A DNA stretch of 64,000 nt, taken from IMG/VR virus record IMGVR_UViG_3300045988_176028, one strand, 5' to 3'. The position numbers and the translations under genes are program-made. Of the stretch, positions 11,739-64,000 are shown in pieces. Origin of the DNA: a virus. The notes under the pieces are model-generated. The model was not told the DNA's origin. It ran no database searches and saw only the letters and a list, made by a program, of their open reading frames with translations. The first letter of the stretch is position 1; each line of letters begins with the position of its first letter.

Positions 11739-12896
11739 ATGACCAACCCATTCAAACCAACCGCCGGACGCATACCCCCAATTCTTGTTGGACGAGAAGA
11801 AATCATCGAAGACTTCGACTACGCCCTAAAAGACGGAGTAGGAAGCCCCGGACGACTGATGTTTCTCACCGGAGCCAGAGGAGTCGGCAAAACCGTAATG
11901 CTGGACACATTGGGAACACACGCTCAAAAACAAGGATGGCAAGTCTACAACGAAAGCGCTGACAGCGGTTTTACACAAAGACTCGTGGACTCACTTACCG
12001 GCAAAGATACCACCCGCATATCTGCATACGACATGCCCAGTGTCGGACTGACGGGAAACACCGGAAACCTCGAACTGAGTCTGGGAAGAATCGAACTCGA
12101 ACGCAAAGAGGAACGTTCCTTGACATTGCGCCAAGCAGTCGGCAAGCGTCTAGACAAAATGAACGAAAACAGGCAAGGAATCCTCATCACCTTGGACGAA
12201 GTGCAATCCGGTTCCATGGATGAAATCAGAGCAATGTCTACCGCCGTGCAACATCTCATACGAGAGGGACGGAATATAGCTTTTATTTTCGCAGGACTAC
12301 CCTCAGCCGTAAACGACGTGCTGTCAGACAACGCCATCACATTCCTCCAACGGGCAGAACGATACCATTTAGGTTCCGTGCCCACGGAGAAGGTTCTGAA
12401 AGCATTCGAGGAATCGTTCAGCGGGGAAAAGAAAGCCGGAATGGAAACCTTGATACGGTTGACCAATGCCACTCATGGTTATCCGTTCATGATTCAGCTG
12501 GTGGGTTATTGGGCTTGGAGGGTTTCCGAAACCAACGGCCATGTGAATCAAGTGACCGAGGAGGACGCGGTCAAGGGTATCGAAAAAGCCCAAGCCAAAC
12601 TAGGGGATATGGTTCACGCCCCAGCATTGCATGGCTTGCCATCCCATGCGGTGAACTATCTGCTTGCCATGTCGGTGGATGATACGGTGTCGAATACAGG
12701 TGAAATCGCCCGTCGGTTGAACCGTTCGCCACAGTTCGCCAACGTGTATAGAACCAAGCTGATTGAGAACGATTTGATTGAGCCGGTCGGTTACGGTGAA
12801 GTCGCTTTCAAAATGCCGTATTTGCGGGATTACTTGCGTGAGCATGGGGCTTATTTGCAGATGCGGGAGAATATCAGCGAACGCTCGGAGAACTAG
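11739..12896 (+). CDS. P-loop ATPase with C-terminal winged-helix-like region (AAA/ORC-like, archaeal-ATPase type)
   Basis: Walker A LTGARGVGKTVML and Walker B-like GILITLDEVQ. C-terminal NTGEIARRLNRSPQFANVYRTKLIENDLIE looks like a wHTH. RBS AAGGAG. The upstream 60 nt is very AT-rich. Confidence 0.7.
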   Translation: MTNPFKPTAGRIPPILVGREEIIEDFDYALKDGVGSPGRLMFLTGARGVGKTVMLDTLGTHAQKQGWQVYNESADSGFTQRLVDSLTGKDTTRISAYDMPSVGLTGNTGNLELSLGRIELERKEERSLTLRQAVGKRLDKMNENRQGILITLDEVQSGSMDEIRAMSTAVQHLIREGRNIAFIFAGLPSAVNDVLSDNAITFLQRAERYHLGSVPTEKVLKAFEESFSGEKKAGMETLIRLTNATHGYPFMIQLVGYWAWRVSETNGHVNQVTEEDAVKGIEKAQAKLGDMVHAPALHGLPSHAVNYLLAMSVDDTVSNTGEIARRLNRSPQFANVYRTKLIENDLIEPVGYGEVAFKMPYLRDYLREHGAYLQMRENISERSEN

Positions 12897-14889: not shown

Positions 14890-16119
14890 TCACGGGTGAA
14901 AAGCCAGCTTCCGCATTTCACAATGCCTCCGATACCACGCTTTCTCCCGAGCGCACAGTCCACGACGGTGAGTTAGACCCGACAGTGTGCTCTCATGGCT
15001 CGTCCAAGAATCCTGAACTGTCCGCAATCCCACATGCACGCCATCATATGAGCGGATAAGGTTACGCGCATGCCGTCGGCTTGCACGCAACGCCTTATGG
15101 TGCATGCGGATAAGAATACTGCCGTCATCCTGTACGCTGTATACGCGTTTCAGGAATGTGAGTTGACCGGTGCGACAGTCCACTATGCGGGTCTTGCGCT
15201 TGTTCAACCGCAATCCCAATTGATTGACATGCCGCTCGTAACCGGCCAGCACACGTTCGGCCTGTTCACGATTCTTGCAGAAACAGTAGGCATCATCCAT
15301 ATACCGTCCGTAGAATCCTTGCGACATGCACCAGTGGTCAACCTTGTTCAAATACCAGATAGCCATGGTTTGGCTTGTCTGATTGCCTAAACCCAAGTGA
15401 GGTTCGTCCAATACGAAGATTCTCAATACGGTTAGAATCCGTTCCACATCCTGCTTCTCCCGTCCGGTGCGGGCGATGCTCCGGTACAGGGTGGAAATCA
15501 TATCGAACGCTCGTTGGGAGCTGATACTTCCGAAATAGTTGGAACAGTCGAAGATGACAGCATACGGATGCTCCCATTTGCCCAAAGCCCGCTTATAGTG
15601 TAGTTCGAACCGTTTTCGGGCGAACGATGTTCCACGTTTCGGTAGGCTTGCCGCATTATCGTATATCAGTTGGCTTTCCACGATGGGGACGAGACTGTTG
15701 TCGCATAAGGCGCGTTGCACCACCCGGTCTCGGAAGGATACCGCGCTGATGTGGCGGAGTTTGCCTCGTTCGGAAATGTCGAATCGGATTGGCGCTCTCT
15801 TCTTGTATGTGCCGTCCTCTAATTCTTGGGCGAGTTTCCAACAGTTGACGGCACGCCTATTGTCGAAGTTCAACACTGTGTTTTCCCATGTGACGCCGCG
15901 TTTGCATTTTCTTGCGGCTTGGTAGAGCGCGTCGAATCCGAATGTTTGTTGGAAGTCGATGTAACGGTGGAGCTTCCTGTACTTATCATCCGAGCGTTGT
16001 TGCAGTCTGCGTTGGCGTCTTCTACGTCTTTGACTCGCATTCACGATTTTAATGCTTCCTTCACTAGGGAAAGAGAAAAGAATGGTTGAGGGCAGGTCGT
16101 CGGCAACAACCCAAGACAT
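14890..16119 (-). CDS. DGR-type reverse transcriptase
   Basis: RT motifs SFRDRVVQRAL and the YxDD box GRYMDDAY. Also the DGR-typical [ILV]GxxxSQ motif (LGLGNQTSQ). Lies about 195 nt downstream of the TR. The N-terminal ~40 aa (poly-Arg) may be over-extension. Confidence 0.88.
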   Translation of the reverse strand: MSWVVADDLPSTILFSFPSEGSIKIVNASQRRRRRQRRLQQRSDDKYRKLHRYIDFQQTFGFDALYQAARKCKRGVTWENTVLNFDNRRAVNCWKLAQELEDGTYKKRAPIRFDISERGKLRHISAVSFRDRVVQRALCDNSLVPIVESQLIYDNAASLPKRGTSFARKRFELHYKRALGKWEHPYAVIFDCSNYFGSISSQRAFDMISTLYRSIARTGREKQDVERILTVLRIFVLDEPHLGLGNQTSQTMAIWYLNKVDHWCMSQGFYGRYMDDAYCFCKNREQAERVLAGYERHVNQLGLRLNKRKTRIVDCRTGQLTFLKRVYSVQDDGSILIRMHHKALRASRRHARNLIRSYDGVHVGLRTVQDSWTSHESTLSGLTHRRGLCAREKAWYRRHCEMRKLAFHP

Positions 16120-18041: not shown

Positions 18042-21000
18042 TCACTGTTCTTCCTTCTTTCGTAGGAGGATGATTGCCGCGACGAGTCCGCTGATGCTGA
18101 CGAGCATGAGGAGCGGCAACAGCAATCCCATGCCCGTGTGCGGCATGGTCGCCAACCATGTTTCAGGCAGGACACCCGCATCCACATGCTCCTTGGTTGG
18201 AGCATCTTGGGTGAGGGTGATGGTCAGCTTGTTGGCTTCATCCGTGTAAGCATCCGAATCAGTGGAGCTTCCATCCGTCGCAGGAGTCTTGTCTCCCACA
18301 TCCGGCGTGGTGAAGTCCCGGTGGTTCACTTTGGTGAATTGGATACGGTATTTGTTGCCGTTCGCGTCCAGACGTTCGAAAATGTACTTGCCATCCTTGT
18401 CGGTCTTGGTGGTTGCCAACTGTTTGCCGTTCTCGTCAGTCAGAATGACCGTCTGACCGGCGAAATGCGTGTTCTCACCTTCATCTTGAATGCCGTTCTT
18501 GTTGGTATCCTCCCAATACAGGCCGCTGATGGAACCGAGTTTCTTCGCGGTGGTGGTTGGTGTGATGATGGTGCCGACTTGGTCGCAGGAGTCCTCATCG
18601 GACGTGCTGAACCAGTGTTGGCGTCCTTCCTCCGTATAGTCGGTGTCGGTGCGGCATGTCGGATTGCCGGTCACGTCATTCGTGTTCGTATCCAGTTTGG
18701 ATGCGTTCGGAGGGTCCGGCTTGGTTTTGCCGCTTGCATGTGGCGTGCCTGAGTATGGCGTGTGTTCGGAGGTGAACCATGCTTGGTTGAGAATGGTCTT
18801 CGTATTCTTCTTGACCCACTCGTCTTTCTCAGTTGGAGACCACTTGGTAGTATCCGCAGTTTCACGGTCAACGGTGCCAGTGAAATGGTAGATGACATAG
18901 CCGCCCGACTCAATCGCATACGGCAGATTGTACGTGCGGGTCGTCAACCCCTTCTCCGTGGACTCGCTCAACGGTTCGACCGGTACGGCGGTCGGGTCGG
19001 ACGATACGACCATTCCCTTCAAACCGGTGGAACGTGCGCCACCCGTCTTGCCGTCACCATACGGGTCGAAGCCCGCAATCATGACCTGCTTGCCGACAAT
19101 GAGCACGTCACGGTCGCCGCCCGCAACGTCGGATGCGGTAATGCCCGTATCGATTGGCGTGGAAACAATATCCGCGTTGCCGCTCGTACTGCCGTTGGTC
19201 CAATACCTGCCTGTACCGGTCTTACCGTTCGCTAATTGGCCGTCACCATTCCAGCCAGCCGCCCACAAGTGTTGGTTCTTGTCGATGGCGTAGAAAGTGT
19301 TGTATCCGCCACCGATACGGGTGATGTACCTCAGATTAGACACATTGGACTGGCCGATACCGCTATCACCTCCGCCGACGAGCACTATCACTGTACCCGC
19401 GTCAGTCAACCCGTAGGCGTTGCCGAATGAGGCGACAACTTGCGTGAAACCAATAGAGAAAAACTCGTCGCCGTCCACCACACAACCGCCGTAGGACGTC
19501 AACGCGACCCACCTGTACGTGCTGGCGCTGACCTGCGTGAACGTTTTACCCGACTGGATTTGCGTCCACGTTGAATACGAGGTGGAACTGACTTTTCCGA
19601 CCACCCACAAGGTGCCGTCACTTGCTATCGCCACAGTGAACTGGTTGCCGCACGCCACGTCAACAAACGTCTTATCTTCTGCGACTAGAGTCCACTGGTC
19701 ACGATTATCCGTATCACCCGTACCCAATTGGCCTTTACCGTTCCAACCAGTCGTGTACAAGTGGCCGTCCGTGCTGATGGCGGCGGAATGCTTGCCACCG
19801 GCGGCGACTTTCAGCCAACTACCGTTGACGATGGTCGGCTTGTTCACGTTCGTTGGGGTAGCGGTATTCGTCGTGTCAGGCTTGAAACCTAATTGACCAT
19901 ACTGGTTGTTACCCCACGCATACAACAAGCCCTCGTTCGTCAACACAAACTTATGGTCGCCACTCGTCGCAACCTGCTTCGCACCACCAGACTCGATAGA
20001 AACCGTACCGGCGGTAGCGGAAACATCATGCACGTCGGCGCTCATACGGTCAGAAACGACACTGGAAGTATCAAAACGACTAGTGCCAGAATTCTGTACT
20101 TTGACATCCCAGTTGATGACGCATTTCGTATCGGTGCAACTGGTGCCGGTGACGGTTTTGTCCACGGTGGCTTTCGGGTCTGGTTTCGCATACCCGTAGT
20201 CCACGTTCTTCTGGTCTGCGCCGATGCCTAGGTGGATGTCGTCGGACGTGTCTTTCGCGTTGGACTTGATTTTGTTCGACCAGCTTCGCGTGTTCGTCAC
20301 GTTTTCGAGCTTGCCATAGTAGGTTTTGACCTGCGTCTGCACGCCATCACCCGTACTGGTGCCAGTGTTGCGTTTCACCGAAGTACGGTAGGTGCCGGAG
20401 TGGAGCAGGTTGAACTCGTAGTAGCCGTCCTTGTCGGTCTTCACCGTTTTGACGGCCTGCCAGCCGCCGCTTGAATCCTGCTTGCCGAGGGTGACTTCCA
20501 CTCCTTCGATACGTTCTTCACTGTCACCGATGAGCGTGTTCTCATCCTTATCCCACCAGACGGTGCCGCTGATGCTACCGGCCACTACCTTCGCCACGTC
20601 AGGCCACGGCTGGTTGCCCGCCGGTTTGTCGGAAGCGTCGGAATAATAGTTACGGCCAAGCCACAGCGTGTACTTGTCGTCTTTCACATTGTCGGATGGG
20701 GTGAGCGTGATGGCGCCGTTCACCGCCGAATAGGACAGTTTATCGTCGGACGCGACGACTGTGCTGGTCAGTCGGATGGCGATGATGTTCTTCTTCTCGA
20801 TGGAGGACAATTCATCCCATGTCTTCCACTCGTAGTCAGCCGGATTATCCGACTTCTTTCCGGTGGTGGTTGAATAGTAGACGGTCGTACTGGTCGAATT
20901 GTCCATATTGACCGTGACGGGCTGGGTCAGTTCGTAGGAGCCATGATAGTTGCTGTATCCACGCTCATATTCGACCAGCTTGTCCTGCACGTACTTCTCA

Positions 21001-23420
21001 TCACCATTCGCAGGAAGCAGTAGCATGCTATCCATGGTGCCGGTATGTCCGCCGCCCTTGCCGTACACGTTGAACTCCCAAGTAAGCGGGTCACTGATTT
21101 CAGCCTTCGTGGTCTTCACACGCATGATGCCACTGTTGGTTTCCGCATTGGAGACAGGGAATGGGACGCTGGGCGTATTGCTTTTGATGGTTTGGGCTTG
21201 CAATGCGCCGTTCTCGTCAACGTCCACGCTCATATTCGCACTGGCGGTCACAGTCCCGGTGGCGAGATTGGATACGATGCCACTGAAATGCAGGTCAGGC
21301 AAAGTGGCCGACCCCATACGGTCTACTTCCGGCGTGACTTTGCCGGAACGTGGCGTGAACACGAGATTATTCCCGTCCACTTTCATCTGCCAGAACGAAT
21401 CATCACAGGTCGGATTGTACAAGCCTTTCGGTTTCGGCACCGTGATGGTCGGCGTCATGCTCGTATTGGACAGGAGAATGGTGCGCAATTGTTCCGTGAC
21501 CGTATAATCCACTCGCATGCCGGGAGTCAAATCGACTGCGCTTCCGGACGGGTGATTGGAACTGTTGTTCGCATACACTTGATTGCCTTCACCATCGTAG
21601 GCTTTTAGACTGATGTCGATACTGGTGGTCGGGTCTACCGGCTTGGCAATCCACACCCAATTGGTGACGCTCGCCTTATCGTCTTCGGTAAGCCATGCGG
21701 TCAGCGTATCCAAAGCTTCCACATTGCCTTTGGACACGTCGGCTATGGCGAGCGTGTTGAACGTGACCTGAACGTTCGGCGCACCCTTTCCCAAAGTCAA
21801 AGTGTCGGGGTTGAACGTCACCCGAATCTTCTTGACGTTCGGAGCGTCTGTGTCGGATGGTTCCCCGTCATGCCAATTGTCTTTGCTATCATCCCATTGA
21901 ACTTTGTAGTCGGAAACCGGAGCGCCGTTCTGGGTGACTTCCAAGCTTCCATCCCACCGCATGCGCGTATTATCCCACTCGTCCTGCATGGTCGGCGTAG
22001 TGTTTTTAAGCTTGTCCGCCGTAACGTTCGCCGCATACATTTCCAAAATGGTTTTGACTTGCGTTCCACGGGACACGGTGTCGCCGGAACCGTCGGAATA
22101 GTAATGGTAGATGTCGGCTTTGCCTTCGGCGGCGTCGAACGTCAGATTCTCCTTGTCGAACATGGTCTTGGACGCAGTGTTAGGACGTTGCAGTCCTTTG
22201 CCGAACAGTGGAATCTTGCCAGCTGGAGTCGGCTTGAGCCGTTGGATGATGGCTCGTGACCAGTCATTATTCGCGTACGGGTAGCCGACGCGGGCACCCG
22301 TATCCTTGTTGTAGGTGCTCTTGTCCCGTCCAATGTTCCAGCCGGGTTCTCCACCTTTGCCCATGTTCAACAGTGCGTCGCCGTTATCGTCTTTGACGCT
22401 GAACACGGTTTCGTCGGGAACAAGGTGGACATCGTAATATTTGACGTCTCCTTCTTTCATGTTTTTGAGCGCGTCGGTTCCGGCGGGAATCCTGTAGCTG
22501 ATTGTCGCCGCCGCACCGTTCTTGCCACTGGATACGGTCAGATACTGTTCTTTATCACTGTTACGGGTAATCCGCTGACCGCCTACAGTCCACACGGTGT
22601 TCTGCGGGAAGTCGGAAATATCCACTTTGGTAGTCCAATCGATGCTGGTGGACGCGCCCTTCGTGGACGAATAACCCGGATAGGTCAACGCGTCGGCACG
22701 AATAGTGAAATCGCCGGTCGCGTCGGTGTTCTGACTCCAATAAGTACGATGCTCATACGAGTATTGGCCTTTCACCGGATTGCCGCCATTGTCAATGACC
22801 AAGTCAGCCGCCGGAGCGGATACTACAGTCAGCTCATCCGTACGATACGTGGTTGACGTTCCACCTTCGCGGGCGACGACGATTTTCGGAATCTGACCCG
22901 GCTTGACCAAGCCTCCCGTGTCTTTTGCTTTCAGATAGAAGGTTTGGGTCATGGTTTCCACGCCACCGGCTGGAACCGTGTAGGAGCAGGAGCCGTCACT
23001 GTTTTTCTTCGCGGTGACGAGTTGTCCCGGCTGGCAGAAGCCACCACCGTCAGCAGTCTGCAAATACGGCGCGTCGTCCAAGTCGAACTTCACGTTGATG
23101 GTACGCTTGCCCGCCGCGTTGAAGTTCAACGTCAATGAATATTCGACCGTATCACCGGATGCGACCACGCCATCGGTAGGGGAATCATCGCCCGTGGCGA
23201 ACCCGTTCTTCGAATTCACGAACGTTTGCGAACTCGTGCCATGCCCCGTACCGTCGGCTTTCTTAACGATTTTCGCAGTAGCATACGCAGGTTTCAACTC
23301 GTCCGCATGCGCTTTTGGAGAGGCTACCGGATTGGTCATGCATGTCAGGCCGGATGCCAGTGTGGCGATTGCGGCCAATAATGCTACCGGATGTGCCACA
23401 TGCTTTTTGAGAATACCCAT
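18042..23420 (-). CDS. giant cell-wall-anchored adhesin (1792 aa) with RCC1-like repeats and SdrD-B/Cna-B-like domains
   Basis: N-terminal signal peptide. RCC1-like repeats (WGNNQYGQLG, GWNGKGQLGTGD, GWNGDGQLANG). Two SdrD-B-like modules (ISGTVWWDKDEN...DKDGYYEF; ISGLYWEDTNKNGIQD...DKDGKYIF). C-terminal MPHTG, a hydrophobic helix and RKKEEQ. Confidence 0.85.
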   Translation of the reverse strand: MGILKKHVAHPVALLAAIATLASGLTCMTNPVASPKAHADELKPAYATAKIVKKADGTGHGTSSQTFVNSKNGFATGDDSPTDGVVASGDTVEYSLTLNFNAAGKRTINVKFDLDDAPYLQTADGGGFCQPGQLVTAKKNSDGSCSYTVPAGGVETMTQTFYLKAKDTGGLVKPGQIPKIVVAREGGTSTTYRTDELTVVSAPAADLVIDNGGNPVKGQYSYEHRTYWSQNTDATGDFTIRADALTYPGYSSTKGASTSIDWTTKVDISDFPQNTVWTVGGQRITRNSDKEQYLTVSSGKNGAAATISYRIPAGTDALKNMKEGDVKYYDVHLVPDETVFSVKDDNGDALLNMGKGGEPGWNIGRDKSTYNKDTGARVGYPYANNDWSRAIIQRLKPTPAGKIPLFGKGLQRPNTASKTMFDKENLTFDAAEGKADIYHYYSDGSGDTVSRGTQVKTILEMYAANVTADKLKNTTPTMQDEWDNTRMRWDGSLEVTQNGAPVSDYKVQWDDSKDNWHDGEPSDTDAPNVKKIRVTFNPDTLTLGKGAPNVQVTFNTLAIADVSKGNVEALDTLTAWLTEDDKASVTNWVWIAKPVDPTTSIDISLKAYDGEGNQVYANNSSNHPSGSAVDLTPGMRVDYTVTEQLRTILLSNTSMTPTITVPKPKGLYNPTCDDSFWQMKVDGNNLVFTPRSGKVTPEVDRMGSATLPDLHFSGIVSNLATGTVTASANMSVDVDENGALQAQTIKSNTPSVPFPVSNAETNSGIMRVKTTKAEISDPLTWEFNVYGKGGGHTGTMDSMLLLPANGDEKYVQDKLVEYERGYSNYHGSYELTQPVTVNMDNSTSTTVYYSTTTGKKSDNPADYEWKTWDELSSIEKKNIIAIRLTSTVVASDDKLSYSAVNGAITLTPSDNVKDDKYTLWLGRNYYSDASDKPAGNQPWPDVAKVVAGSISGTVWWDKDENTLIGDSEERIEGVEVTLGKQDSSGGWQAVKTVKTDKDGYYEFNLLHSGTYRTSVKRNTGTSTGDGVQTQVKTYYGKLENVTNTRSWSNKIKSNAKDTSDDIHLGIGADQKNVDYGYAKPDPKATVDKTVTGTSCTDTKCVINWDVKVQNSGTSRFDTSSVVSDRMSADVHDVSATAGTVSIESGGAKQVATSGDHKFVLTNEGLLYAWGNNQYGQLGFKPDTTNTATPTNVNKPTIVNGSWLKVAAGGKHSAAISTDGHLYTTGWNGKGQLGTGDTDNRDQWTLVAEDKTFVDVACGNQFTVAIASDGTLWVVGKVSSTSYSTWTQIQSGKTFTQVSASTYRWVALTSYGGCVVDGDEFFSIGFTQVVASFGNAYGLTDAGTVIVLVGGGDSGIGQSNVSNLRYITRIGGGYNTFYAIDKNQHLWAAGWNGDGQLANGKTGTGRYWTNGSTSGNADIVSTPIDTGITASDVAGGDRDVLIVGKQVMIAGFDPYGDGKTGGARSTGLKGMVVSSDPTAVPVEPLSESTEKGLTTRTYNLPYAIESGGYVIYHFTGTVDRETADTTKWSPTEKDEWVKKNTKTILNQAWFTSEHTPYSGTPHASGKTKPDPPNASKLDTNTNDVTGNPTCRTDTDYTEEGRQHWFSTSDEDSCDQVGTIITPTTTAKKLGSISGLYWEDTNKNGIQDEGENTHFAGQTVILTDENGKQLATTKTDKDGKYIFERLDANGNKYRIQFTKVNHRDFTTPDVGDKTPATDGSSTDSDAYTDEANKLTITLTQDAPTKEHVDAGVLPETWLATMPHTGMGLLLPLLMLVSISGLVAAIILLRKKEEQ

Positions 23421-24325
23421 TAGTGTTCCTTCTTTGCGTGGTTTTTTCTACGGATGATGAGAATGGTGATGATGATTACCGCAAGCCAGAAGCCGCCGAC
23501 GTACAGCATGAGCCATTGGTTCGTGTGGTCTTTCGGCGCGTTTTCGGGTTTGGGCGCGGGGTGTGGCATGCTGGCGCGCGTGCCGGTCACCAAGAGTCGC
23601 TTGTTGTTGATGCCGTATGGCGTGCAGGTCAATAGTGTGGAGAGGTCTTTTCCGGCGACGATTTTCAGTTTAGAAAAGTCGGATGGGTCTACCACACTAA
23701 TATCCGTGACCTTGTAAGCGAGCATATGTCCGGCGGTTATCAAATAGAAGACGTCTCCCTTTTTGGCTTCACTGCCGAAGCCTCGCAGCTTGTCGAACAT
23801 GAGCTGGTCGGCCAAACCCGTGTGAGCGGATATGACAGTATGCGTGTTCTTGCCACCGACGGGGAGACTGGAACCGTATAAGTGTCCAGCTCCAGCGGCC
23901 AACACATTTTGCGACGTGCCATGCCGGATGGGCAGGTTGATGCCCAAGCGTGGATATTTGATGGTAGCCATGACCCCATCCTTGGGGGTGGATAGTTGCT
24001 TCCGATACGTGTTGTCCGTTTCGGACTTGTTGACGCCCGTCCAAGGGTCTTCCGCCTCACCAAGAATGGGCTGGCCTTCCTCGTATAGGCGTTGATTGTA
24101 GGCTTGCGCGTCCGCATACTCTTGGGCGATTCGTTTCACGTCAGTGTTTTCCACGGCTTGCGCGTGGGAGTCGGTCAACCGGTTGGATTGGCTGCTGTTC
24201 GAAATCATGAGAATGAATGGGATGGTTCCGGACAGGGCGGATAGGATTAGGCAGAGAAGTCCCGCTATGGCTCGATTTCCCAAGCCTTTCGGTTTCGCCG
24301 TATGTTTTCCCAAAACCCCTCCCAT
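23420..24325 (-). CDS. class C (pilus-assembly) sortase
   Basis: Catalytic motifs HTVISAHTG and TLLTCTPYG...R. N-terminal and C-terminal TM helices, as is typical for class C sortases. Confidence 0.88.
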   Translation of the reverse strand: MGGVLGKHTAKPKGLGNRAIAGLLCLILSALSGTIPFILMISNSSQSNRLTDSHAQAVENTDVKRIAQEYADAQAYNQRLYEEGQPILGEAEDPWTGVNKSETDNTYRKQLSTPKDGVMATIKYPRLGINLPIRHGTSQNVLAAGAGHLYGSSLPVGGKNTHTVISAHTGLADQLMFDKLRGFGSEAKKGDVFYLITAGHMLAYKVTDISVVDPSDFSKLKIVAGKDLSTLLTCTPYGINNKRLLVTGTRASMPHPAPKPENAPKDHTNQWLMLYVGGFWLAVIIITILIIRRKNHAKKEH

Positions 24326-24339
24326 GCGGTTATAAAGAA

Positions 24340-24380
24340 TCTAAAAAGTGGCGTGTCGATATTTGGGTTCCCGACACGCC
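24340..24380 (-). terminator. intra-operon terminator/attenuator candidate between pilin and sortase
   Basis: Stem ggcgtgtcg (24350..24358) pairs with cgacacgcc (24372..24380). Followed on the minus strand by ACTTTTTAG. Confidence 0.5.
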
Positions 24381-24459
24381 AAGCGGAACATTTCATGCTT
24401 TTCCAACCGTCAAACGGTCAGAAAAGTTTTCTCATACGGCAGTATTCCAATCTCCAATC

Positions 24460-26190
24460 TCACGCCTTGCGACGAAGCAGCAGGGCGGAAGCGCCAGCCA
24501 ACAGGACGGTCATCACGCCGAAGATGGACAGCCAGACCGCACCGGTCTTCGGCATGTCAGCGATGTTGCGGGCGTTGATGACGGTCACTCCATCGTCACT
24601 GGTCTTGGAGGCCAGATGGTTGGCATCATCCTTGAACTTGGTGAGGGACGAAGTGCTGGTGTTATGGTCTTTGGACTGGGCCACGCCAACGGTCAGAGTG
24701 AACTCCGGCAGAATGCTGCCGCCGAACGGACTCTTGGTTTCAGTCACCGTGTAGGCACCGTACAAGCCCTTCAAGGTGATGACGCCATTGTTCTTATCGG
24801 TGGTGGTGATGTCGGCGCTTGCGGTAGCGGCCTCAGTCGAGTCGGCAACACGATACTCGTTATCACCCACCTTGACGAACTTGACGATATTGCTCTTGGC
24901 ATCCTTGATGTTGAACACGGCACCCGCGAGCGGAGCATTGTTCGTATCGGTCTTGGTCAGAGTGAACTTGCCGACGTACACGTAGTTGGTGTCGCCCGGA
25001 GTCTTCTCATGGTCGGTGACGGTGTTCGGATTATGGGAGTATTCGACCTCGCTCGTGTTGGTGTCAACACCGTCCACGTGGGCGTTCTTGTTCACGGTCA
25101 TGTCATAAGTGACAAGCACTTCCGCATCGACCGGGAACGTGGTCTTGGCGGCGATGATGTCGGAAGAACCATCAGCGGTCGGGGCGAACAGGATATGGAA
25201 CTTGCCCGCCTCGGTCGTCACCTTGTAATCCTTGCCAGCAGTCAAAGCCTTACCACCGACAGTGACATTCACACTATCCGGGTTGAAAGTCAGACCATCC
25301 GAATACGTATCGTTGAGCGCATAATAATAATGGTCGTAGCCAGTCCAAACAGGCACCGCGCCGCCCATCGTGAAAGAGACCTTCTTGCCGATGGAGGTCT
25401 TGGCTACCGCATAATATTTCTTCCCTGCTTGGCGAGCCCCCTCATCCTCATGGTCCTCACCGATTTTCTCATCCACATCACCATTCTCAACAGAGGTGAT
25501 AGCCTTCCTGACTGCGGCGTCATGCACCTTATAGTCCACGGTGCCCAGCGTGTAGGTCTTGTCGCCGTTCTTCAACGTGGTCTTGCCGTCGATGCCGGTG
25601 CCGTTGAACATGACGATGGACGCCTGACCGGCCGTGGTGGTGTCCACGACCGCATACACGCCCGGACGGACTGATGCGGTCATATGCTTGGCGTCGGCGC
25701 CCTTGGCGAACGCGGTGCCCTTGTCGCCGGTGACGGCGGCCTCGTTCTTCAACTGGTCGATGAAGTCACGAAGCTTGCCAGCCCACGGGCTGTTCTCGGA
25801 ATCAAGGAGATTCTGCACGACCCACACCATCGGATTGGACGCATTATAGTCGTATCCGGCAGTCTGGTCTTTCTTGGACTGGGTGTCAATATGGGCTTTA
25901 GTCAGTGCGTCAGCAATGGCAGAAGCCTTGCCCGCGTCAATCAGGTCAAAGCCGGTAATATTAGTACCATCAGTCTGCGCATACGAATAGTAGGCGAGCG
26001 GCACAGCCTTCAACGTGCGATTGCTAATATCACCATTAGCAGCGACGGTCAACGTCTGACGAGCAGCCTCACCAAGCTTGGATGCGTCAACACGAGTATC
26101 AGCCGCCATGGCGGAGCCAACTCCAGCCAAACCCATGGCACCGGCCACAAGCGTGGCGACCGTTGCCTTCAACAGGTTTTTGGTTTTCAC
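24460..26190 (-). CDS. sortase-dependent major pilin (576 aa)
   Basis: Signal peptide MKTKNLLKATVATLVAGAMGLAGVGSAMA. E-box-like YTVTETKSPFGG. C-terminal MPKTG, a hydrophobic helix and RRKA. Confidence 0.8.
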   Translation of the reverse strand: MKTKNLLKATVATLVAGAMGLAGVGSAMAADTRVDASKLGEAARQTLTVAANGDISNRTLKAVPLAYYSYAQTDGTNITGFDLIDAGKASAIADALTKAHIDTQSKKDQTAGYDYNASNPMVWVVQNLLDSENSPWAGKLRDFIDQLKNEAAVTGDKGTAFAKGADAKHMTASVRPGVYAVVDTTTAGQASIVMFNGTGIDGKTTLKNGDKTYTLGTVDYKVHDAAVRKAITSVENGDVDEKIGEDHEDEGARQAGKKYYAVAKTSIGKKVSFTMGGAVPVWTGYDHYYYALNDTYSDGLTFNPDSVNVTVGGKALTAGKDYKVTTEAGKFHILFAPTADGSSDIIAAKTTFPVDAEVLVTYDMTVNKNAHVDGVDTNTSEVEYSHNPNTVTDHEKTPGDTNYVYVGKFTLTKTDTNNAPLAGAVFNIKDAKSNIVKFVKVGDNEYRVADSTEAATASADITTTDKNNGVITLKGLYGAYTVTETKSPFGGSILPEFTLTVGVAQSKDHNTSTSSLTKFKDDANHLASKTSDDGVTVINARNIADMPKTGAVWLSIFGVMTVLLAGASALLLRRKA

Positions 26191-49135: not shown

Positions 49136-49154
49136 TTTACTGGAATGTTTCTCC
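49136..49154 (+). promoter_or_regulatory. degenerate copy of the promoter/leader box
   Basis: Text is tttactggaatgtttctcc. It keeps the ACTGGAATGTT core. Upstream of parA. Confidence 0.35.
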
Positions 49155-49267
49155 GAACGGTTTTCCAGTTCGGCGTGCCGACTTTTCGCCGTTGTTATCA
49201 TCGAAACAAAAAACATACCCCCACCATGATTCCGTCCACACCGGAAGCAGAAAAAGGAAACCAGAAC

Positions 49268-49930
49268 ATGAGAGTCAAAAACCATACGGTCATCATCACC
49301 GTCGCAATCATCAAAGGCGGTTCAGGAAAAACAACCACATCAATGGCATTGGCCGAACTATTGCACAAACGCGGGGAACAAGTCACAGTCTTGGACTCCG
49401 ACAACACGGGCGGCGCGACCATGTGGGAAATGTACGTCGAACAGGAAAACCGCAGACGCAGACAGGACAATCCGGACGCGAAACCATACACGCTCGGCTT
49501 CCCCGTCGTGCAAACCAACGAAGCCGTATTGAACAATCCGGAACTCATCCGCGAAAAATATTCAGGCTGGGTCATCATCGACACCCCACCGTCCGACGCG
49601 GGAGTGGTACAGGCGGCGATAAACGCGGGCGACGTGGTGATAATCCCATGCCAGCCATCCGTATCCGATTTGACTCACGCGGGACGCACATACGCGGCGG
49701 CACGCAACGGCATCGTCCTGTTGACACGCGTGAAGCCGAGAACGAAACTCGCCCGGAACAGCATCAGCGAACTGGATGAGGAAGGCATCGCACGGTTCGA
49801 AACCGTCATCACGGAACGTGAAGCCGTCAAGAACATGTACGGCACAACCGAAATCGACAACAAGGAATATTCCAGCGTCGTGCAGGAACTCATCGACTAT
49901 CTGTCTGAAATCAATCTGGTGGAAGAATAA
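49268..49930 (+). CDS. parA: ParA-family partition ATPase
   Basis: Trimmed to the ATG at 49268 (MRVKNHTVIITVAIIKGGSGKTTTSMALA), a deviant Walker A right at the N-terminus as in small ParAs. VIIDTPPS is the Walker B region. Confidence 0.85.
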   Translation: MRVKNHTVIITVAIIKGGSGKTTTSMALAELLHKRGEQVTVLDSDNTGGATMWEMYVEQENRRRRQDNPDAKPYTLGFPVVQTNEAVLNNPELIREKYSGWVIIDTPPSDAGVVQAAINAGDVVIIPCQPSVSDLTHAGRTYAAARNGIVLLTRVKPRTKLARNSISELDEEGIARFETVITEREAVKNMYGTTEIDNKEYSSVVQELIDYLSEINLVEE

Positions 49931-50524: not shown

Positions 50525-51394
50525 TTAGGATACGAACGGGTTCATCGGCTCTTCATCGTCTGCCACGCCCGCGTCCGTGTCGGCATCATCGTTAGCCGAC
50601 TGGATGGAAGGGAGACTGGGACGGACTATGACACCGGTTTCCGTGACTTCGACTTTCAATTCCGGCCATGCGAGCTGAATCTTCTCCAACGCTCTCTTGA
50701 ACTTGCGTCTGAATTCACGCATCGGATACCCGTCATACTTGAACTGCATCAACAGGGCTTCCCATGTCACGCGCGTCTCATGGCGCATGGCATGGGCACG
50801 GAACGCGAGCCACTGGTATACGTCCAACGCGAGGGCATCGTTGCGAAGCTGGCGAACGATGGATGGGTTGAGAGGAACGCAGTTCTCCGTCAGCAGTGCC
50901 CACATCTCGGGGGAGAACTTTATGTAAGACTTCTTCGCCCCGTCATCGTCGTAGTTGAGTGACACTATGTTGGCAACGAAGAAAGAGTGGGCTGTGAATC
51001 CGCCAGTGGACCAGTTTTCAAGGACGATGGAGGTTGTCGCTAGATTCCTGACCATGTTCATTACCGTCTCCTTGCTGGACCCTGAATAGTGGATTCCAGT
51101 GCTCTTGCAGAATGAACGATAGGTGTCGTCCAAGTAGACGGTATGATTCTCTGCGTCCACACAGTCGCTACTGTTCTTGATGAGAGAACGGATGTGGATG
51201 AGGAACATTCTGGGGGCTGCTCCGTATGCCCATTCTCCGGTGGAGGCCGAGACTGTGATTGACGAGTTTCCGTTAATTTTTCTCATGGACTGAGATTCCG
51301 GTTTCGACTGCGGCAGGAAACTCAGCTTAGACATAACCGACGGCGTGTAGTTGTATGTATTCGACTTGTAGAGGTCTTTGCTATGATTGGTCAT
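50525..51394 (-). CDS. repA: plasmid replication initiator, RepA family (RepA_C-type)
   Basis: Layout YGAAPRMFLIHIRSL...SIVRQLRNDALALDVYQWLAFRA...VTWEALLMQFKYDGYPMREFRRKFKRALEKIQLAWPEL matches the plasmid-encoded RepA pattern I recall. Iterons lie about 240 nt upstream. Confidence 0.75.
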   Translation of the reverse strand: MTNHSKDLYKSNTYNYTPSVMSKLSFLPQSKPESQSMRKINGNSSITVSASTGEWAYGAAPRMFLIHIRSLIKNSSDCVDAENHTVYLDDTYRSFCKSTGIHYSGSSKETVMNMVRNLATTSIVLENWSTGGFTAHSFFVANIVSLNYDDDGAKKSYIKFSPEMWALLTENCVPLNPSIVRQLRNDALALDVYQWLAFRAHAMRHETRVTWEALLMQFKYDGYPMREFRRKFKRALEKIQLAWPELKVEVTETGVIVRPSLPSIQSANDDADTDAGVADDEEPMNPFVS

Positions 51395-51634: not shown

Positions 51635-51700
51635 AAAGTGGGCACTTTCGACACGGAAAGTGGGCACTTTCGACACGGAAAGTGGGCACTTTCGACACGC
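51635..51700. repeat. iterons: three tandem 22-bp direct repeats (origin of replication)
   Basis: Unit aagtgggcactttcgacacgga at 51635, 51657 and 51679 (third copy 20/22). A tttcgacac half-site recurs at about 51732. Confidence 0.85.
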
Positions 51701-53581: not shown

Positions 53582-54607
53582 ATGGCTAAGAAGAAAGGCG
53601 GAATGTCCGCCGGTTCCCTGCTTGGCGGCATTCTGGTCGTGTTGACGGCCATGGTGCTCATCGTGAATCTTGGATTGTGGACTCCCATGTCGAAGATTTT
53701 CGGATTGCCGGAAATCAACAGTCTATCCCAGTTGATGCCGGGTGAGGATTCCAAGGTGAAGCCGGATGTGAAATTAGGGTTGAAGGAGCCTTCCTTGAAG
53801 TCGTCCGGCTCCAATTCGCAAACCAATACTCCAGAAGCCGCAGAAACGCCCTCAGAAACGACGCAGACACAAAATGGGGACAATTCCTCAAGTCAAGCAC
53901 AAAAAGCCTCCACAAGCGTTCCTGAAGGTGCTTTAAGCCCTATCAGCACGAAACAGGCGCTTGACAAACTCGCTGACATCGAAACCGCAACCCCGCACAC
54001 CAAAGGATACAATCGCAAAACCGACTTCGGCACATGGCAGAACAGCAACCAGCTCTGCGGATACGGCACCACCCGCGACTACATCCTCAAACGCGACATG
54101 ACCGACGTGACCATGGACAAGAACTGCAAGGTGCTCACCGGCACCCTCCAAGACCCATATACAGGCAATGCCATCAAATTCCAGCGCGACACCTACGAGA
54201 CCGTCAACGGCAAACAGAAGAAAACAGGCGGAGACAGCATGGCCGTCCAAATCGACCATGTGGTGGCTGTCAACGACGCTTGGGCCAGCGGACTGTGGAA
54301 GGACTCGCGCAAGGGCGACCGCATCACCTATGCGAACGACCCGGAAGTGCTCGTCGCGTCCGAAGGAGAAGCGAACAACATCAAACAGCAGGGCGTGAAC
54401 CTTGTTAAGGACGAGGCGTTGAACGGTTCCTCGACCAGGTGGAAGGACGCAACGCCCAGCATTTGGCTCCCGTCCAACAAGACGTACCAATGCTCGTATA
54501 TGGCTAAACGCGTGTACATCAAAGACAAGTACAAACTGTCCATGAGCAGTTGGGAAAAAGCCGAAACGAAGTCGTTCCTCACGCAATGCGTGGCCGACGG
54601 GAACTGA
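53582..54607 (+). CDS. membrane-anchored extracellular DUF1524/HNH-type nuclease
   Basis: N-terminal TM helix. C-domain GYNRKTDFGTWQ...CGYGTTRDYILKRD...DPYTGNAIKF...VQIDHVVAVNDAW...YANDPEVLVASEGEANNIKQ...WLPSNKTYQC matches the actinobacterial DUF1524 nuclease pattern. Confidence 0.7.
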   Translation: MAKKKGGMSAGSLLGGILVVLTAMVLIVNLGLWTPMSKIFGLPEINSLSQLMPGEDSKVKPDVKLGLKEPSLKSSGSNSQTNTPEAAETPSETTQTQNGDNSSSQAQKASTSVPEGALSPISTKQALDKLADIETATPHTKGYNRKTDFGTWQNSNQLCGYGTTRDYILKRDMTDVTMDKNCKVLTGTLQDPYTGNAIKFQRDTYETVNGKQKKTGGDSMAVQIDHVVAVNDAWASGLWKDSRKGDRITYANDPEVLVASEGEANNIKQQGVNLVKDEALNGSSTRWKDATPSIWLPSNKTYQCSYMAKRVYIKDKYKLSMSSWEKAETKSFLTQCVADGN

Positions 54608-61188: not shown

Positions 61189-61210
61189 AAAAATGGTTAA
61201 GGAGAAAAAT

Positions 61211-61939
61211 ATGAGCGACAAAAACACCACACCAAAACTTCCCAAGTACAAGAAGACCATCGACGCTACCGGATTCGGACTATCCTGCGTCACCGAATAC
61301 GGGTTCGATGACGCAGGGCTGTTCCACCACTCATACACGTACAACTACAAGAACAGGAAGGCCGTCATCCAAGTGATGGGAAGCCAGCAGCCCGCCGACT
61401 GGCATACCCGCCAAAGCGCCTACGCCTCCTACTATGAGGATGGGAAACAGGTAGGCCGAACCCGTGCCTATAACATTCTTGAAAACGCTCAAATCAAGGC
61501 AGTCCGTTGGATTATGGGCTTCGGCTCGGATAGCAAGGCGGAAGAAGCCTATCGTGCCGTTCGACTGGAGAAAAGCCATCGCAATCAGCAAATCTGCCGT
61601 CGCATCCCCAAACCATTGCGCATGGAAGTCGAGGGGCTTGCAAATAAGCTGGGTTTGAAAATCCACGGCGACGAAGACAACAGCATTGTGGAAACGTTCG
61701 TGAACACGTATCTCGCCACTGCGGAACAGAATGGTCTGATTGAACTGAGAGAACGTCAATACGGTTACGAAAAGTCGATGACCGTATGGCTGGACGGGGA
61801 TGCGAGCCGCAAAACCGAAGACGCCCCCGACTGGGAGAAGTTCAAGGAAACCGTCGTGGAAATCGTCCCACTCTATTTGGAATGTAGACGGAAAACGGCG
61901 GAAAGCGTTGGTCTGGGGGAGAAGCTGGCTGAAAACTAA
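61211..61939 (+). CDS. hypothetical protein, 242 aa
   Basis: ATG at 61211 (MSDKNTTPKLPKYKK), RBS AAGGAG. Confidence 0.6.
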   Translation: MSDKNTTPKLPKYKKTIDATGFGLSCVTEYGFDDAGLFHHSYTYNYKNRKAVIQVMGSQQPADWHTRQSAYASYYEDGKQVGRTRAYNILENAQIKAVRWIMGFGSDSKAEEAYRAVRLEKSHRNQQICRRIPKPLRMEVEGLANKLGLKIHGDEDNSIVETFVNTYLATAEQNGLIELRERQYGYEKSMTVWLDGDASRKTEDAPDWEKFKETVVEIVPLYLECRRKTAESVGLGEKLAEN

Positions 61940-62429
61940 TCCTGATGGTTGGGACAGAAAACTGCTCCAACCATTTTTGTTGCGTTCTCCAATATCTGCC
62001 TATAATCCTCAAGGACACCTACTGTCACGTTTAAGTCCACGGCCATTGGGAAAAGCTCACCCTCATAGATTCGTTCGGATTGGATATATTCGAACGGATT
62101 GATAAGCAGTATCGCCGTCTCCTTACGAACGTATGATTCAGCCTTGTCATCGTATTGTTTCCAGCAACAAGTATCACCGTGAGTCCAATGGAATAGTTCA
62201 TGCGTTAACGTGCATCGTTTCTGCCGCTCGTTCAACCGTGGGTCTATGACGATGATGCGGGTTTCCTCGTCATATACGCCGTATATACGCCGTTGATGTT
62301 TTCCGGAAGTTCCTCCTCGAAAACGTATGGCGCTTGACGTGTGAGTCCTACCATCCGTTTTATCTCTTCATAGCACATTCGCCGGTCGATGGCGACGCTT
62401 CTGTTGTCTACTGGGGGATGTTTCAGCAA
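61936..62429 (-). pseudogene. ImmA/IrrE-type HExxH metallopeptidase gene disrupted by an 11-bp tandem duplication
   Basis: ORFs 62244..62429 and 61936..62235 are one gene split by atatacgccgt duplicated exactly (62272..62282 and 62283..62293). Removing one copy restores ...ENINGVYDEETRIIVIDPRLNERQKRCTLTHELFHW. Confidence 0.7.
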
Positions 62430-62803
62430 GCGTCCTCGCTTTCCGATTCCGCTTGCTTGTTGGGGTCGTGGTTTGCGGCCAATGTGAGGTCGCCGGAATT
62501 GATTTTACGCAGGACGGCTTGAAGCTGCTGTTCCACAACGGATTGCGTGGAATGGTATCCGTTGTGTCCGGCGATGAGTTCTTCTGGGGTCATGTTCCAT
62601 GCGTGGGCGAGTTTTTCCACGTCGGCGGGGAGCCATTCGACCGTTTCGTTGTATCGTGTGGTGACGTAGCTGGGGCTTTTGCCTAGTTGACGTGCGATGT
62701 CCCGTGCGGAGAGCCGTCGGATTCCGGCTTCCGCTAGGATGCGTTGGTTGATTCTTCTGTTGAATTCGCTGGTTTGGTTTTTTCTTTTTCCCATGTTTTC
62801 CAT
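62423..62803 (-). CDS. XRE-family HTH transcriptional regulator (ImmR-like)
   Basis: HTH segment LSARDIARQLGKSPSYVTTRYNETVEWLPADVEKLAHAWNMTPEELI. Overlaps the ImmA-like start by 7 nt, matching the immR-immA gene order. Confidence 0.75.
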   Translation of the reverse strand: MENMGKRKNQTSEFNRRINQRILAEAGIRRLSARDIARQLGKSPSYVTTRYNETVEWLPADVEKLAHAWNMTPEELIAGHNGYHSTQSVVEQQLQAVLRKINSGDLTLAANHDPNKQAESESEDAC

Positions 62804-62841: not shown

Positions 62842-62869
62842 TTGACAGCATACTTTTATATGCTATTGT
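62842..62869 (+). promoter_or_regulatory. sigma-70-like promoter candidate facing the 63116 gene
   Basis: TTGACA (62842..62847), a 16-nt spacer containing the inverted repeat gcata/tatgc, then TATTGT (62864..62869). Confidence 0.4.
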
Positions 62870-62879
62870 CTGTAATTAC

Positions 62880-62891
62880 GAACACTTGTTC
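62880..62891. promoter_or_regulatory. palindromic operator candidate GAACActTGTTC
   Basis: Perfect 5+5 palindrome about 10 nt downstream of the candidate -10. Its right arm plus flank, TTGTTCAC, equals the conserved 8-mer of the promoter/leader box. Confidence 0.4.
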
Positions 62892-63029
62892 ACTCGAAGA
62901 AACAGGAAGTCAATGCATAACATGAGTTACGACAAGGCACGGACGCCCTTGTGGACAGTCAGGTAGACACCTCCAAGAAACCCGTTCCACATACCCCGCC
63001 TCAAAATTGGAGGGACACACCCCCAATTT

Positions 63030-63048
63030 TGTGAATACGCCCAGTATG
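63030..63048 (-). promoter_or_regulatory. degenerate copy of the promoter/leader box
   Basis: Coding-strand text is catactgggcgtattcaca (14/19 to consensus). Directly abuts the 9-bp inverted repeat caaaattgg/ccaattttg (63002..63031). Confidence 0.3.
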
Positions 63049-63115
63049 ACTAGAATAAAAAAACGTCCACACAATATAAGCCAGACTCCACACAGGCCAG
63101 ACCAAAAGGAATGTT

Positions 63116-64000
63116 TTGAGAAAGACAATAGACCAGAAAATCCTCTTGGATAAACACTTCACAAAATTGGACATCCTAGGCCAGCACCTATGGATGATGC
63201 TCCAACTGCATCCGAAGACCAATGCTCTCGGCGTATGTGATTGGACGTTTGGAAAAATCAACGCTTACACTCACGGAAACACTCCCACCCTATTCCAACA
63301 GGCGGGACGGGAACTCGTAAACGAAGGACTACTGGTCATAGACGAGGACACCGAAGAAGCACTCCTCCTCGACCACATCGACCTCACGGCGGACTCCGGA
63401 ACCATCGAATCCGCATACCTTGGAACCGCCAGCCCAAGACTGCGCAGAATCCTAGTCAGTGAACTGAACCGAACCCTCCGACAGGGAAAGCACTTCCCGT
63501 TCGAATGGGAGGAGATTCATGACATCCTCAGTGAATCGAATGCCGACTCCGACGAATATGAGGAGCCGCATCCAAGCGTGGAACCCGTCGAGGATGATTC
63601 CCTAAACACCTCCCAGACAGATAATTCCACCTCCAAAAAGGAAAAAGAACCCGCCAAGCAGGACGATACCGAAACCTCAAGCGTGAAACCCGTAGAAGCG
63701 GAAGACAAGCCCGTCGGGAAGCGTCGCGGTCGCCCACGCAAGAATCCACTCCCTCCGGAAGGAGAAGACAAACCGAAGCGTCGGCGCGGTCGCCCACGCA
63801 AGTACAAACCCGAACCGGTCGAACTGATGGACGGAACCATGGAGCCTCCGTTCGAGGAGCCGATGACCATGGAACAGGTCGAGGTTCTGCCCCAATACGA
63901 TTCCAACGCTCCAATCGACGTGGATGATGACGGGGAACCCAAGTATTTGCAGTGGGATGAAATCCCGCAACAGCTTTGGTTCTGGCATCCTCTGCCGGAA
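63116..64000 (+). CDS. AT-hook-containing protein (5' partial view; runs off the window)
   Basis: Hand translation is open from the TTG at 63116 (after AAAGGAA) to the window end, so it is absent from the ORF track. Two GRPRK AT-hook cores (KRRGRPRKNP, RRRGRPRKYK). Confidence 0.6.
   Translation, partial: MRKTIDQKILLDKHFTKLDILGQHLWMMLQLHPKTNALGVCDWTFGKINAYTHGNTPTLFQQAGRELVNEGLLVIDEDTEEALLLDHIDLTADSGTIESAYLGTASPRLRRILVSELNRTLRQGKHFPFEWEEIHDILSESNADSDEYEEPHPSVEPVEDDSLNTSQTDNSTSKKEKEPAKQDDTETSSVKPVEAEDKPVGKRRGRPRKNPLPPEGEDKPKRRRGRPRKYKPEPVELMDGTMEPPFEEPMTMEQVEVLPQYDSNAPIDVDDDGEPKYLQWDEIPQQLWFWHPLPE

Follow-up and report, generated by a model that had tools for sequence, protein, structure and literature searches.

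An 11-bp tandem duplication frameshifts the peptidase gene of an ImmR/ImmA-type module on a gut plasmid

Introduction

In the integrative and conjugative element (ICE) ICEBs1, the 127-residue repressor ImmR is cleaved between F95 and M96 by the peptidase ImmA after DNA damage or RapI signalling, which leads to induction of the element (PMC8960796). A two-gene module composed of a helix-turn-helix (HTH) gene and an HExxH peptidase gene (immRA) is also found in TnSmu1 of Streptococcus mutans. Here, immA can be deleted while immR cannot (PMC10233336). A similar logic is found in Deinococcus, where the protease IrrE (also named PprI) cleaves the XRE-type repressor DdrO. We describe a module that resembles these systems in a 64,000-bp stretch of DNA (IMG/VR record IMGVR_UViG_3300045988_176028, referred to below as the window), which is part of a complete, metagenome-assembled plasmid of 221,031 bp, distantly related to the pMP7017 megaplasmids of Bifidobacterium. 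In the window, the immR-like gene is intact and the immA-like gene is interrupted by an exact 11-bp tandem duplication, most probably a recent and private loss-of-function event in an otherwise ordinary ImmR/ImmA-type module on a gut plasmid.

As in ICEBs1, a small XRE repressor (126 residues, against 127 in ICEBs1) is encoded immediately upstream of, and co-transcribed with, an HExxH peptidase of the ImmA/IrrE family, and the genes of the element diverge from a regulatory region that contains repeats. However, ICEBs1 is an integrated ICE, while the module discussed here is located on a 221-kb plasmid of actinobacterial type. No int or xis gene is adjacent, and the divergent operon begins with a replication-initiator-like gene rather than with xis and conjugation genes. 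Furthermore, the similarity to characterised ImmA/IrrE proteins is confined to the motif region, and the peptidase of this copy is frameshifted.

The likeness to DdrO and IrrE is seen in the best structure-sequence match of the peptidase, which extends over GxYD...TLxHExxH, and in the best fold match of the repressor, although both matches are weak (E values of 0.002 by sequence and 0.02 by fold). The common logic, i.e., a protease that cleaves an XRE repressor, is extended to the present module by analogy. IrrE is a three-domain chromosomal stress regulator of ~290 residues, the gene of which is not adjacent to ddrO, whereas the peptidase discussed here is a 160-residue, single-domain protein encoded in an operon with the repressor on a plasmid.

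The closest annotated homologues are those of the pMP7017 family and of the phages PMBT6 and Bbif-1, with 43−49% identity; these genes are intact and uncharacterised. In pMP7017, the neighbours of the immA-like gene are a small gene upstream and a divergent, HTH-like one. That plasmid nevertheless belongs to a different family: the DnaB proteins are only 53% identical (45% for ImmA), there is no nucleotide match, and the first gene of the divergent operon described here, which encodes 524 residues, has no homologue in PLSDB. TnSmu1, finally, is a Firmicute ICE without a detectable close sequence relationship to the plasmid, and the lesion described here is natural, not engineered. The pattern seen here, with immR intact and immA broken, fits that system all the same, and because immA but not immR can be deleted in TnSmu1, a lesion in immA is expected to be tolerated.

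Results and Discussion

The duplication and its effect on the reading frame

The sequence-only reading of the window, which preceded the present analysis, had reported that the 11-mer ATATACGCCGT occurs twice in tandem and splits the reading frame of a peptidase gene. Both the sequence and Tandem Repeats Finder (TRF) agree with this claim (period 11, 2.0 copies, 100% match; coordinates of this and all other features of the module are collected in Table 1). Among exact tandem duplications of at least 11 bp it is the sole one in the window, where ~64,000 × 4^-11 = 0.015 would be expected by chance according to our own calculation. The repeat cannot be extended by a single base on either flank, i.e., it is without flanking microhomology, and its junction forms a perfect 10-bp palindrome, CGTATATACG.

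The additional 11-mer separates Y49 from D50 of the peptidase, within the conserved N-G-V-Y-D-E motif. As a consequence of the frameshift the gene now encodes a stub of 61 residues, of which 49 are native and 12 out of frame, while the catalytic part is stranded in the native frame downstream. In this 3' part, the earliest position at which translation could restart is a TTG codon at 62235, which would yield 99 residues. Deletion of one 11-mer restores a continuous 160-residue protein, identical to that which the sequence-only reading had predicted from the same operation. Such an intact allele exists in nature, both as a database protein (P0001, 99% identical) and in six contigs that equal the repaired immR-immA DNA.

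The copy in the window is a frameshifted pseudogene of an ImmA/IrrE-family member; no continuous open reading frame (ORF) encodes the whole domain. Exact look-ups of the two ORF fragments returned no database record, because gene callers did not call the fragments as such. Annotators should treat 61936..62429 as a single frameshifted ImmA/IrrE-family pseudogene rather than as two small ORFs for hypothetical proteins.

Comparison with related plasmids

The sequence-only reading had proposed a comparison with related plasmids as a check. When this was done, a single copy of the 11-mer was found in every related contig examined, which confirms that the window carries an insertion. Six independent metagenome contigs (L006, L007, L010, L012, L014 and L015) are 100% identical to the 857-bp immR-immA segment minus one 11-mer. 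A pattern scan of JGI and ENA metagenomes, in which 0−22 extra bases were allowed at the duplication site, yielded nine more contigs, all with a single copy and none with three. In all, one copy is found in L001/2, L005-L012, L014, L015, L020-L028, L033 and L036.

The duplicated 11-mer is seen at one locus only, L013/L038; as this locus matches the window over 11,578 bp with 100% identity, it is the window's own source (IMG 3300053491 Ga0557493_057133, 221,031 bp). Between the window and its nearest relative, L033 (ENA ERZ27242267), a comparison over 11.6 kb shows only two differences, one single-nucleotide polymorphism (SNP) and the 11-bp insertion. This near-identity places the duplication event on a terminal branch of the tree and indicates that the assembly is not noisy with respect to insertions and deletions. 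Judged from these alignments, the duplication arose very recently. That it is derived and private can be regarded as established, as can the lesion itself and the identities of the genes.

Other irregularities were seen at and near the locus. In L005 (positions 6020−6875; NCBI GCA_039754515.1, JBDMKJ010000002.1), a 1-bp deletion (TTCC to TTC) is found in the HELFH codons of immA. The ImmR of the same contig has an R38C replacement at an otherwise invariant HTH residue, and the gene call there is a spurious fusion ORF of 259 residues (P0013). The deletion may be genuine decay of the module, or it may be a sequencing error, since it affects a CC run. The database proteins P0012, P0014 and P0015 also look frameshifted. 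A 2-nt gap in L020, considered as a further lesion, was set aside; it lies in a poly-A run of immR in a contig with a coverage of 1.2 and is probably an error. At ~59546 the window differs from L001 and L002 by a 1-bp insertion or deletion; the state in the window is common to its closest relatives, L033 and L036, so that the variant lies on the L001 side.

Identity of the peptidase

The repaired 160-residue protein was suggested in the sequence-only reading to be ImmA/IrrE-like, and the similarity searches place it in the ImmA/IrrE family of metallopeptidases (Peptidase_M78, COG2856). The protein scores above the cut-off for Pfam PF06114, Peptidase_M78 (IrrE N-terminal-like; 25.1 bits, cut-off 22), and for DUF6782 (PF20573; 27.9 bits, cut-off 27), and it matches the metallo-protease family PHROG 87 with an E value of 5.7e-17. 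A profile of the family matches the sequences of the IrrE/PprI crystal structures 8slm and 3dte in the PDB (E value of 0.0021). The alignment to IrrE covers NGVYDEETRIIVIDPRLNERQKRCTLTHELxH, i.e., it spans the site of the lesion, from which it follows that the duplication interrupts the conserved G-x-Y-D strand that immediately precedes the catalytic helix.

Among 11−15 homologues, HELFH (residues 73−77), D82 and E94 are invariant, and E100 is nearly so. The third zinc ligand is presumably one of the downstream acidic residues. Homologues annotated as "ImmA/IrrE family metallo-endopeptidase" are found in Bifidobacterium megaplasmids of the pMP7017 family (43−45% identity), and zinc metalloproteinase homologues are found in temperate Bifidobacterium phages (41−49% identity). 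In phage PMBT6, the one phage context that was read, the homologue is located near an integrase gene and an HTH regulator gene. A search of genome contigs with the ImmA protein returned only one unrelated, weak match.

Against diverged relatives, the ratio of nonsynonymous to synonymous substitution rates (dN/dS) of immA is 0.08−0.39, with dS near saturation, and the cluster of the intact allele P0001 comprises 545 member sequences. Because of the low dN/dS and the size of this cluster, immA is, as far as such comparisons tell, normally functional and under purifying selection in the diverged relatives.

The repressor and the gene pair

The 126-residue ImmR-like protein matches PHROG 4, "transcriptional repressor" (E value of 2.8e-5). 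In an AlphaFold2 (AF2) model of the protein, the five-helix core has predicted local distance difference test (pLDDT) values of 63−78. A Foldseek search of the PDB with this model returned almost exclusively XRE-fold proteins among the top 50 matches (probabilities of 0.91−1.00). The best match is DdrO, with the HTH domain of which the model superimposes with a template modelling (TM) score of 0.73 and a root-mean-square deviation of 2.3 Å; further matches are ClgR, SinR, C.AhdI and the 434 and P22 repressors. The protein is thus predicted, with sub-threshold Pfam matches and a model of modest quality, to have an N-terminal HTH of the XRE/cI type. The dN/dS of immR against diverged relatives is 0.19−0.29, i.e., this gene is likewise under purifying selection.

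The TTG start codon of immA at 62429 overlaps the stop codon of immR by 7 nt (TTGCTGA, 62423..62429). The same overlapping start is called in the diverged loci L016, L018, L019 and L030, with ATG as start codon in L019. Hence, the proposed ImmR/ImmA-like arrangement, in which an XRE HTH gene overlaps an M78 HExxH gene, is supported by the domain, the motif, the gene order and the HTH fold. All four are those of an ImmR/ImmA module, except that the protease gene of this copy is broken.

One of the related loci, L018 (positions 3329−4230), is a mosaic. The stretches compared in its intergenic region and at the start of immR are near-identical to the window, and the differences in its ImmR are confined to the C-terminal half of the protein, while its ImmA is only 72−75% identical at the protein level. 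This pattern indicates, at the level of the alignments, recombination within the module.

The regulatory region and the divergent operon

In the intergenic region upstream of immR, an inverted-repeat search identified an 18-bp palindrome, which is a candidate operator. In an alignment of six lineages it lies in the sole strongly conserved block of an otherwise diverged region. The palindrome is perfect in L016, and in L019 and L030 the symmetry is retained with different bases. The -10 element of a promoter-like site that points away from immR overlaps the palindrome, and the positions of the hexamers of this site are conserved in the same alignment. By analogy with the systems described above, the ImmR-like protein may bind the palindrome and repress the divergent operon.

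A second type of repeat was considered as the main operator. All three copies of the CAAAATTGG box in the window cluster at 63002..63170, where 0.93 copies would be expected in 64 kb and 4 of 100 shuffled sequences reach three; the sequence TTCACAAAATTGG occurs twice exactly at this cluster. The boxes are present in L005, L008 and L018 and absent in L016, L019 and pMP7017 (L004). They were set aside as main operator, since they are missing from the more diverged L016 and L019, so that the conserved palindrome is the better candidate.

The divergent gene of ~524 codons, the 5' part of which lies in the window, heads the presumed target operon of ImmR. A full-length orthologue (L006, positions 1114−2688) matches PHROG 3171 and PHROG 8064 with E values of 7.8e-15 and 1.5e-12, respectively, both "replication initiation protein". 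Searches with this replication-initiator-like protein of ~520 residues gave no match in Pfam, NCBIfam or PLSDB, and the RepA and RepB proteins of pMP7017 were dropped as its equivalents for want of a PLSDB homologue. The length of the protein varies between 497 and 544 residues among otherwise near-identical plasmids, and when L010 and L012 are aligned to the window, the alignments are interrupted at 63722..63802, pointing to a segment of the gene that may be variable.

The gene order is kept in diverged relatives: a divergent operon encoding proteins of ~520, ~220 and ~130 residues, the intergenic region, immR, the overlapping immA, and a convergent gene for ~240 residues. In the three diverged relatives for which it was measured, ImmA is 61−74% identical. 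The convergent gene in the window encodes 248 residues, for which no family match was found in Pfam, PHROG or NCBIfam.

In L016 (positions 3188−3508) and in pMP7017 (L004, positions 4927−5214), a small HTH-like gene occupies a Cro-like position, with the palindrome on one side and the divergent operon on the other. The HTH matches of both are below cut-off: the L016 protein matches HTH_3 (E value of 0.0019) and three PHROG regulator families, and the pMP7017 protein only HTH_23 (E value of 0.023). The lineage of the window lacks this gene and has a gap of ~245 nt in its place.

A relation to defence regulators of the CapH/CapP type was also considered. With PADLOC (2.0.0), no match was found for ImmR or ImmA, which is a weak negative as the program may lack CapH/CapP models; the neighbouring operon is replication-initiator-like and not a known defence system. 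An NCBIfam search of the module gave no useful matches.

Table 1. Positions, in the 64-kb window, of the immR-immA module, its surroundings and the plasmid replicon
Feature	Position	Strand	Remarks
ParA gene	49145..49930	+	part of the plasmid replicon 49145..51699
RepA_C-domain initiator gene	50525..51394	-	Pfam 8.7e-10
Three perfect 22-bp iterons, AAAGTGGGCACTTTCGACACGG	51635..51699		upstream of repA
Convergent 248-aa gene	61193..61939	+	end overlaps the immA stop by 4 nt; position conserved in relatives
immA-like, stranded 3' part	61936..62271	-	native frame D50..D160 and stop; contains HELFH (H73-H77) and E94
Out-of-frame tail of the truncated product	62244..62282	-	TAYMTRKPASSS, 12 codons, then stop at 62244
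Exact 11-bp tandem duplication	62272..62282 and 62283..62293		ATATACGCCGT twice on the + strand; ACGGCGTATAT twice on the coding strand
immA-like, native 5' part	62283..62429	-	TTG start, codons 1-49 (M1..Y49), reading to ...NINGVY
immR-like, 126-aa XRE-type HTH repressor, intact	62423..62803	-	from ORF, PHROG and Foldseek
Promoter-like site, TTGACA-16-TATTGT (TG-extended)	62842..62869	+	consensus match only; points away from immR
Candidate operator, 18-bp palindrome TGTCTGTAATTACGAACA	62867..62884		consensus TGTyyGTAA-TTACrrACA; inverted-repeat search
Inverted pair of CAAAATTGG boxes	63002..63035		right-hand box overlaps the -35 of a second promoter-like site, 63029..63056
Third CAAAATTGG box	63158..63170		inside the called start of the 524-aa gene
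Divergent ~524-aa gene, 5' part	63116..64000	+	leaves the window end; phage-type replication-initiation-like, GRPRK (AT-hook-like) repeats

Functional consequences and alternative explanations

By analogy with ICEBs1 and DdrO/IrrE, the module in its intact form would consist of the XRE-type repressor and, translationally coupled to it, a zinc metallopeptidase of normally 160 residues, i.e., an immunity module of the phage/ICE type. The repressor, bound to the palindrome that overlaps the divergent promoter, would silence the replication-initiator-like operon; upon a signal such as DNA damage, the peptidase would presumably cleave the repressor and the operon would be induced. With the peptidase frameshifted by the 11-bp duplication, its catalytic part would remain untranslated or, at best, be produced as an N-terminally truncated fragment beside an intact repressor. 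The expected outcome is a repressor that is not cleaved and a module that is non-inducible and permanently repressed. Such a lesion would be tolerated because loss of the anti-repressor should be harmless to the host, while loss of the repressor should not. A locked-repressed state, in which removal of the repressor fails for lack of an active protease, is plausible on these grounds.

A recent, private loss of function of immA is the explanation that we consider probable, but a number of observations weigh against it. The two-copy allele is known from one metagenome assembly, at the level of the assembly. The Pfam HTH matches of ImmR are all below cut-off, and its AF2 model is poor overall (pLDDT of 58). 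The AF2 model of ImmA, obtained from a shallow alignment, is also poor (pLDDT of 49), to the extent that the third zinc ligand cannot be placed, and its Foldseek match to PprI is not significant (E value of 0.68). Cleavage of the repressor, operator binding, the inducing signal and the regulated genes are all drawn from other systems by analogy. Finally, the role of the broken gene could be taken over by a paralogue, be it encoded in another part of the plasmid or by the host; a second ImmA-like gene was sought in 64 of the 221 kb of the plasmid, i.e., in the window, and none was found there.

The occurrence of the allele in a single metagenome assembly would also be expected if the duplication were an artefact of assembly or polishing, or a minority variant picked by the assembler, in which case the plasmid population of the sample would have an intact immA. 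However, over 11.6 kb only one SNP, and no other insertion or deletion, separates the window from its nearest relative, as would not be expected from an assembly rich in such errors. Exact 11-bp tandem duplications within non-repetitive coding sequence are also not known as typical consensus errors of either short- or long-read data. An artefact is therefore unlikely.

Inactivation of immA might instead be recurrent and selected, such that plasmid lineages or their hosts lock off the inducible module of this prevalent gut megaplasmid, and the duplication allele, which is precisely revertible, would then act as a slow bet-hedging switch. Candidates for further examples are the 1-bp deletion in L005 and the proteins P0012, P0014 and P0015. 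We regard this scenario as quite improbable.

In a further scenario, put forward in the sequence-only reading, the duplication would be part of a programmed, reversible ON/OFF switch, in which the copy number of the 11-mer is toggled by slipped-strand mispairing and sets the presence of the anti-repressor and thereby the inducibility of the module. Any exact tandem duplication can indeed be lost precisely, whether through slippage or through recombination of the two copies, and the wild-type gene would thereby be regained unchanged. In addition, immA has apparently been hit repeatedly, given the disrupted allele of L005 and the three frameshift-like database proteins. These other lesions, however, differ in kind and in site, as would be expected from sporadic, random inactivation rather than from a dedicated switch sequence. 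Moreover, the repeat character of the tract is not conserved: all examined contigs of the lineage have one copy and none has three, and two copies are found only in the source of the window. A phase-variable locus would be expected to show copy-number polymorphism at the same site across strains, which the alignments do not display, and two copies (exactly 2.0) of an 11-nt unit without flanking microhomology do not resemble known contingency loci, the tracts of which are short and multi-copy. The claim of a reversible switch is, from the above, not upheld and appears very improbable. Precise reversion by slippage is physically possible, as for any tandem duplication, and nothing suggests that it is used.

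It is equally improbable that the module still works, by reinitiation of the 99-residue HExxH fragment at the TTG located 8 nt downstream of the premature stop, by ribosomal frameshifting or by cleavage of the repressor by another protease: although the HExxH helix and E94 lie inside the downstream fragment, residues 50−61 (DEETRIIVIDPR, nearly invariant in the family) are missing from both fragments, neither of which matches Peptidase_M78 on its own, no Shine-Dalgarno-like sequence was found upstream of the TTG, an 11-nt insertion would require a +1 or -2 ribosomal shift for which no slippery motif is evident, and the window holds no ImmA paralogue.

With the loss-of-function explanation, the mechanism itself adds nothing new, as ImmR/ImmA-type switches and decay by frameshift are well understood. 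The locus does, however, offer a natural "protease-dead" allele beside many isogenic intact alleles, a pair that could serve to test what the module controls.

The plasmid, its family and other features of the window

The plasmid nature of the element is concluded from the RepA_C-domain initiator, the ParA protein and the iterons listed in Table 1. Plasmids of this family, ~215−230 kb in size (L032-L041), are extremely frequent among assemblies of human-gut metagenomes. An index of public assemblies lists the exact ImmR protein in 954 blocks, often on contigs of 213−262 kb; 36 of the blocks include contigs of 0.2−1 Mb. Nucleotide searches gave no match in PLSDB (megablast) or among phages (blastn), and a literature search found no paper describing this gut plasmid family, which is very prevalent in the human gut and essentially unstudied.

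Outside the module, the window encodes a reverse transcriptase (RT) of 409 residues (14890..16119, - strand), which matches Pfam RVT_1 (3.3e-13) and generic models of the RT and defence-associated RT (DRT) type in PADLOC (up to 6.3e-26). It adjoins unannotated genes and a gene for an AAA_16 ATPase (11739..12896) and may constitute a defence-type RT system. A protein of 341 residues (53582..54607, + strand) with a GmrSD_C restriction-endonuclease domain (Pfam 1e-6) is conserved in all relatives. The window also carries sortase-type pilins and large surface proteins. A cluster of surface-protein genes at 18042..26190 (- strand) encodes a 1792-residue protein with RCC1-like and SdrD B-like domains as well as a Gram-positive backbone pilin of 576 residues (GramPos_pilinBB, SpaA).

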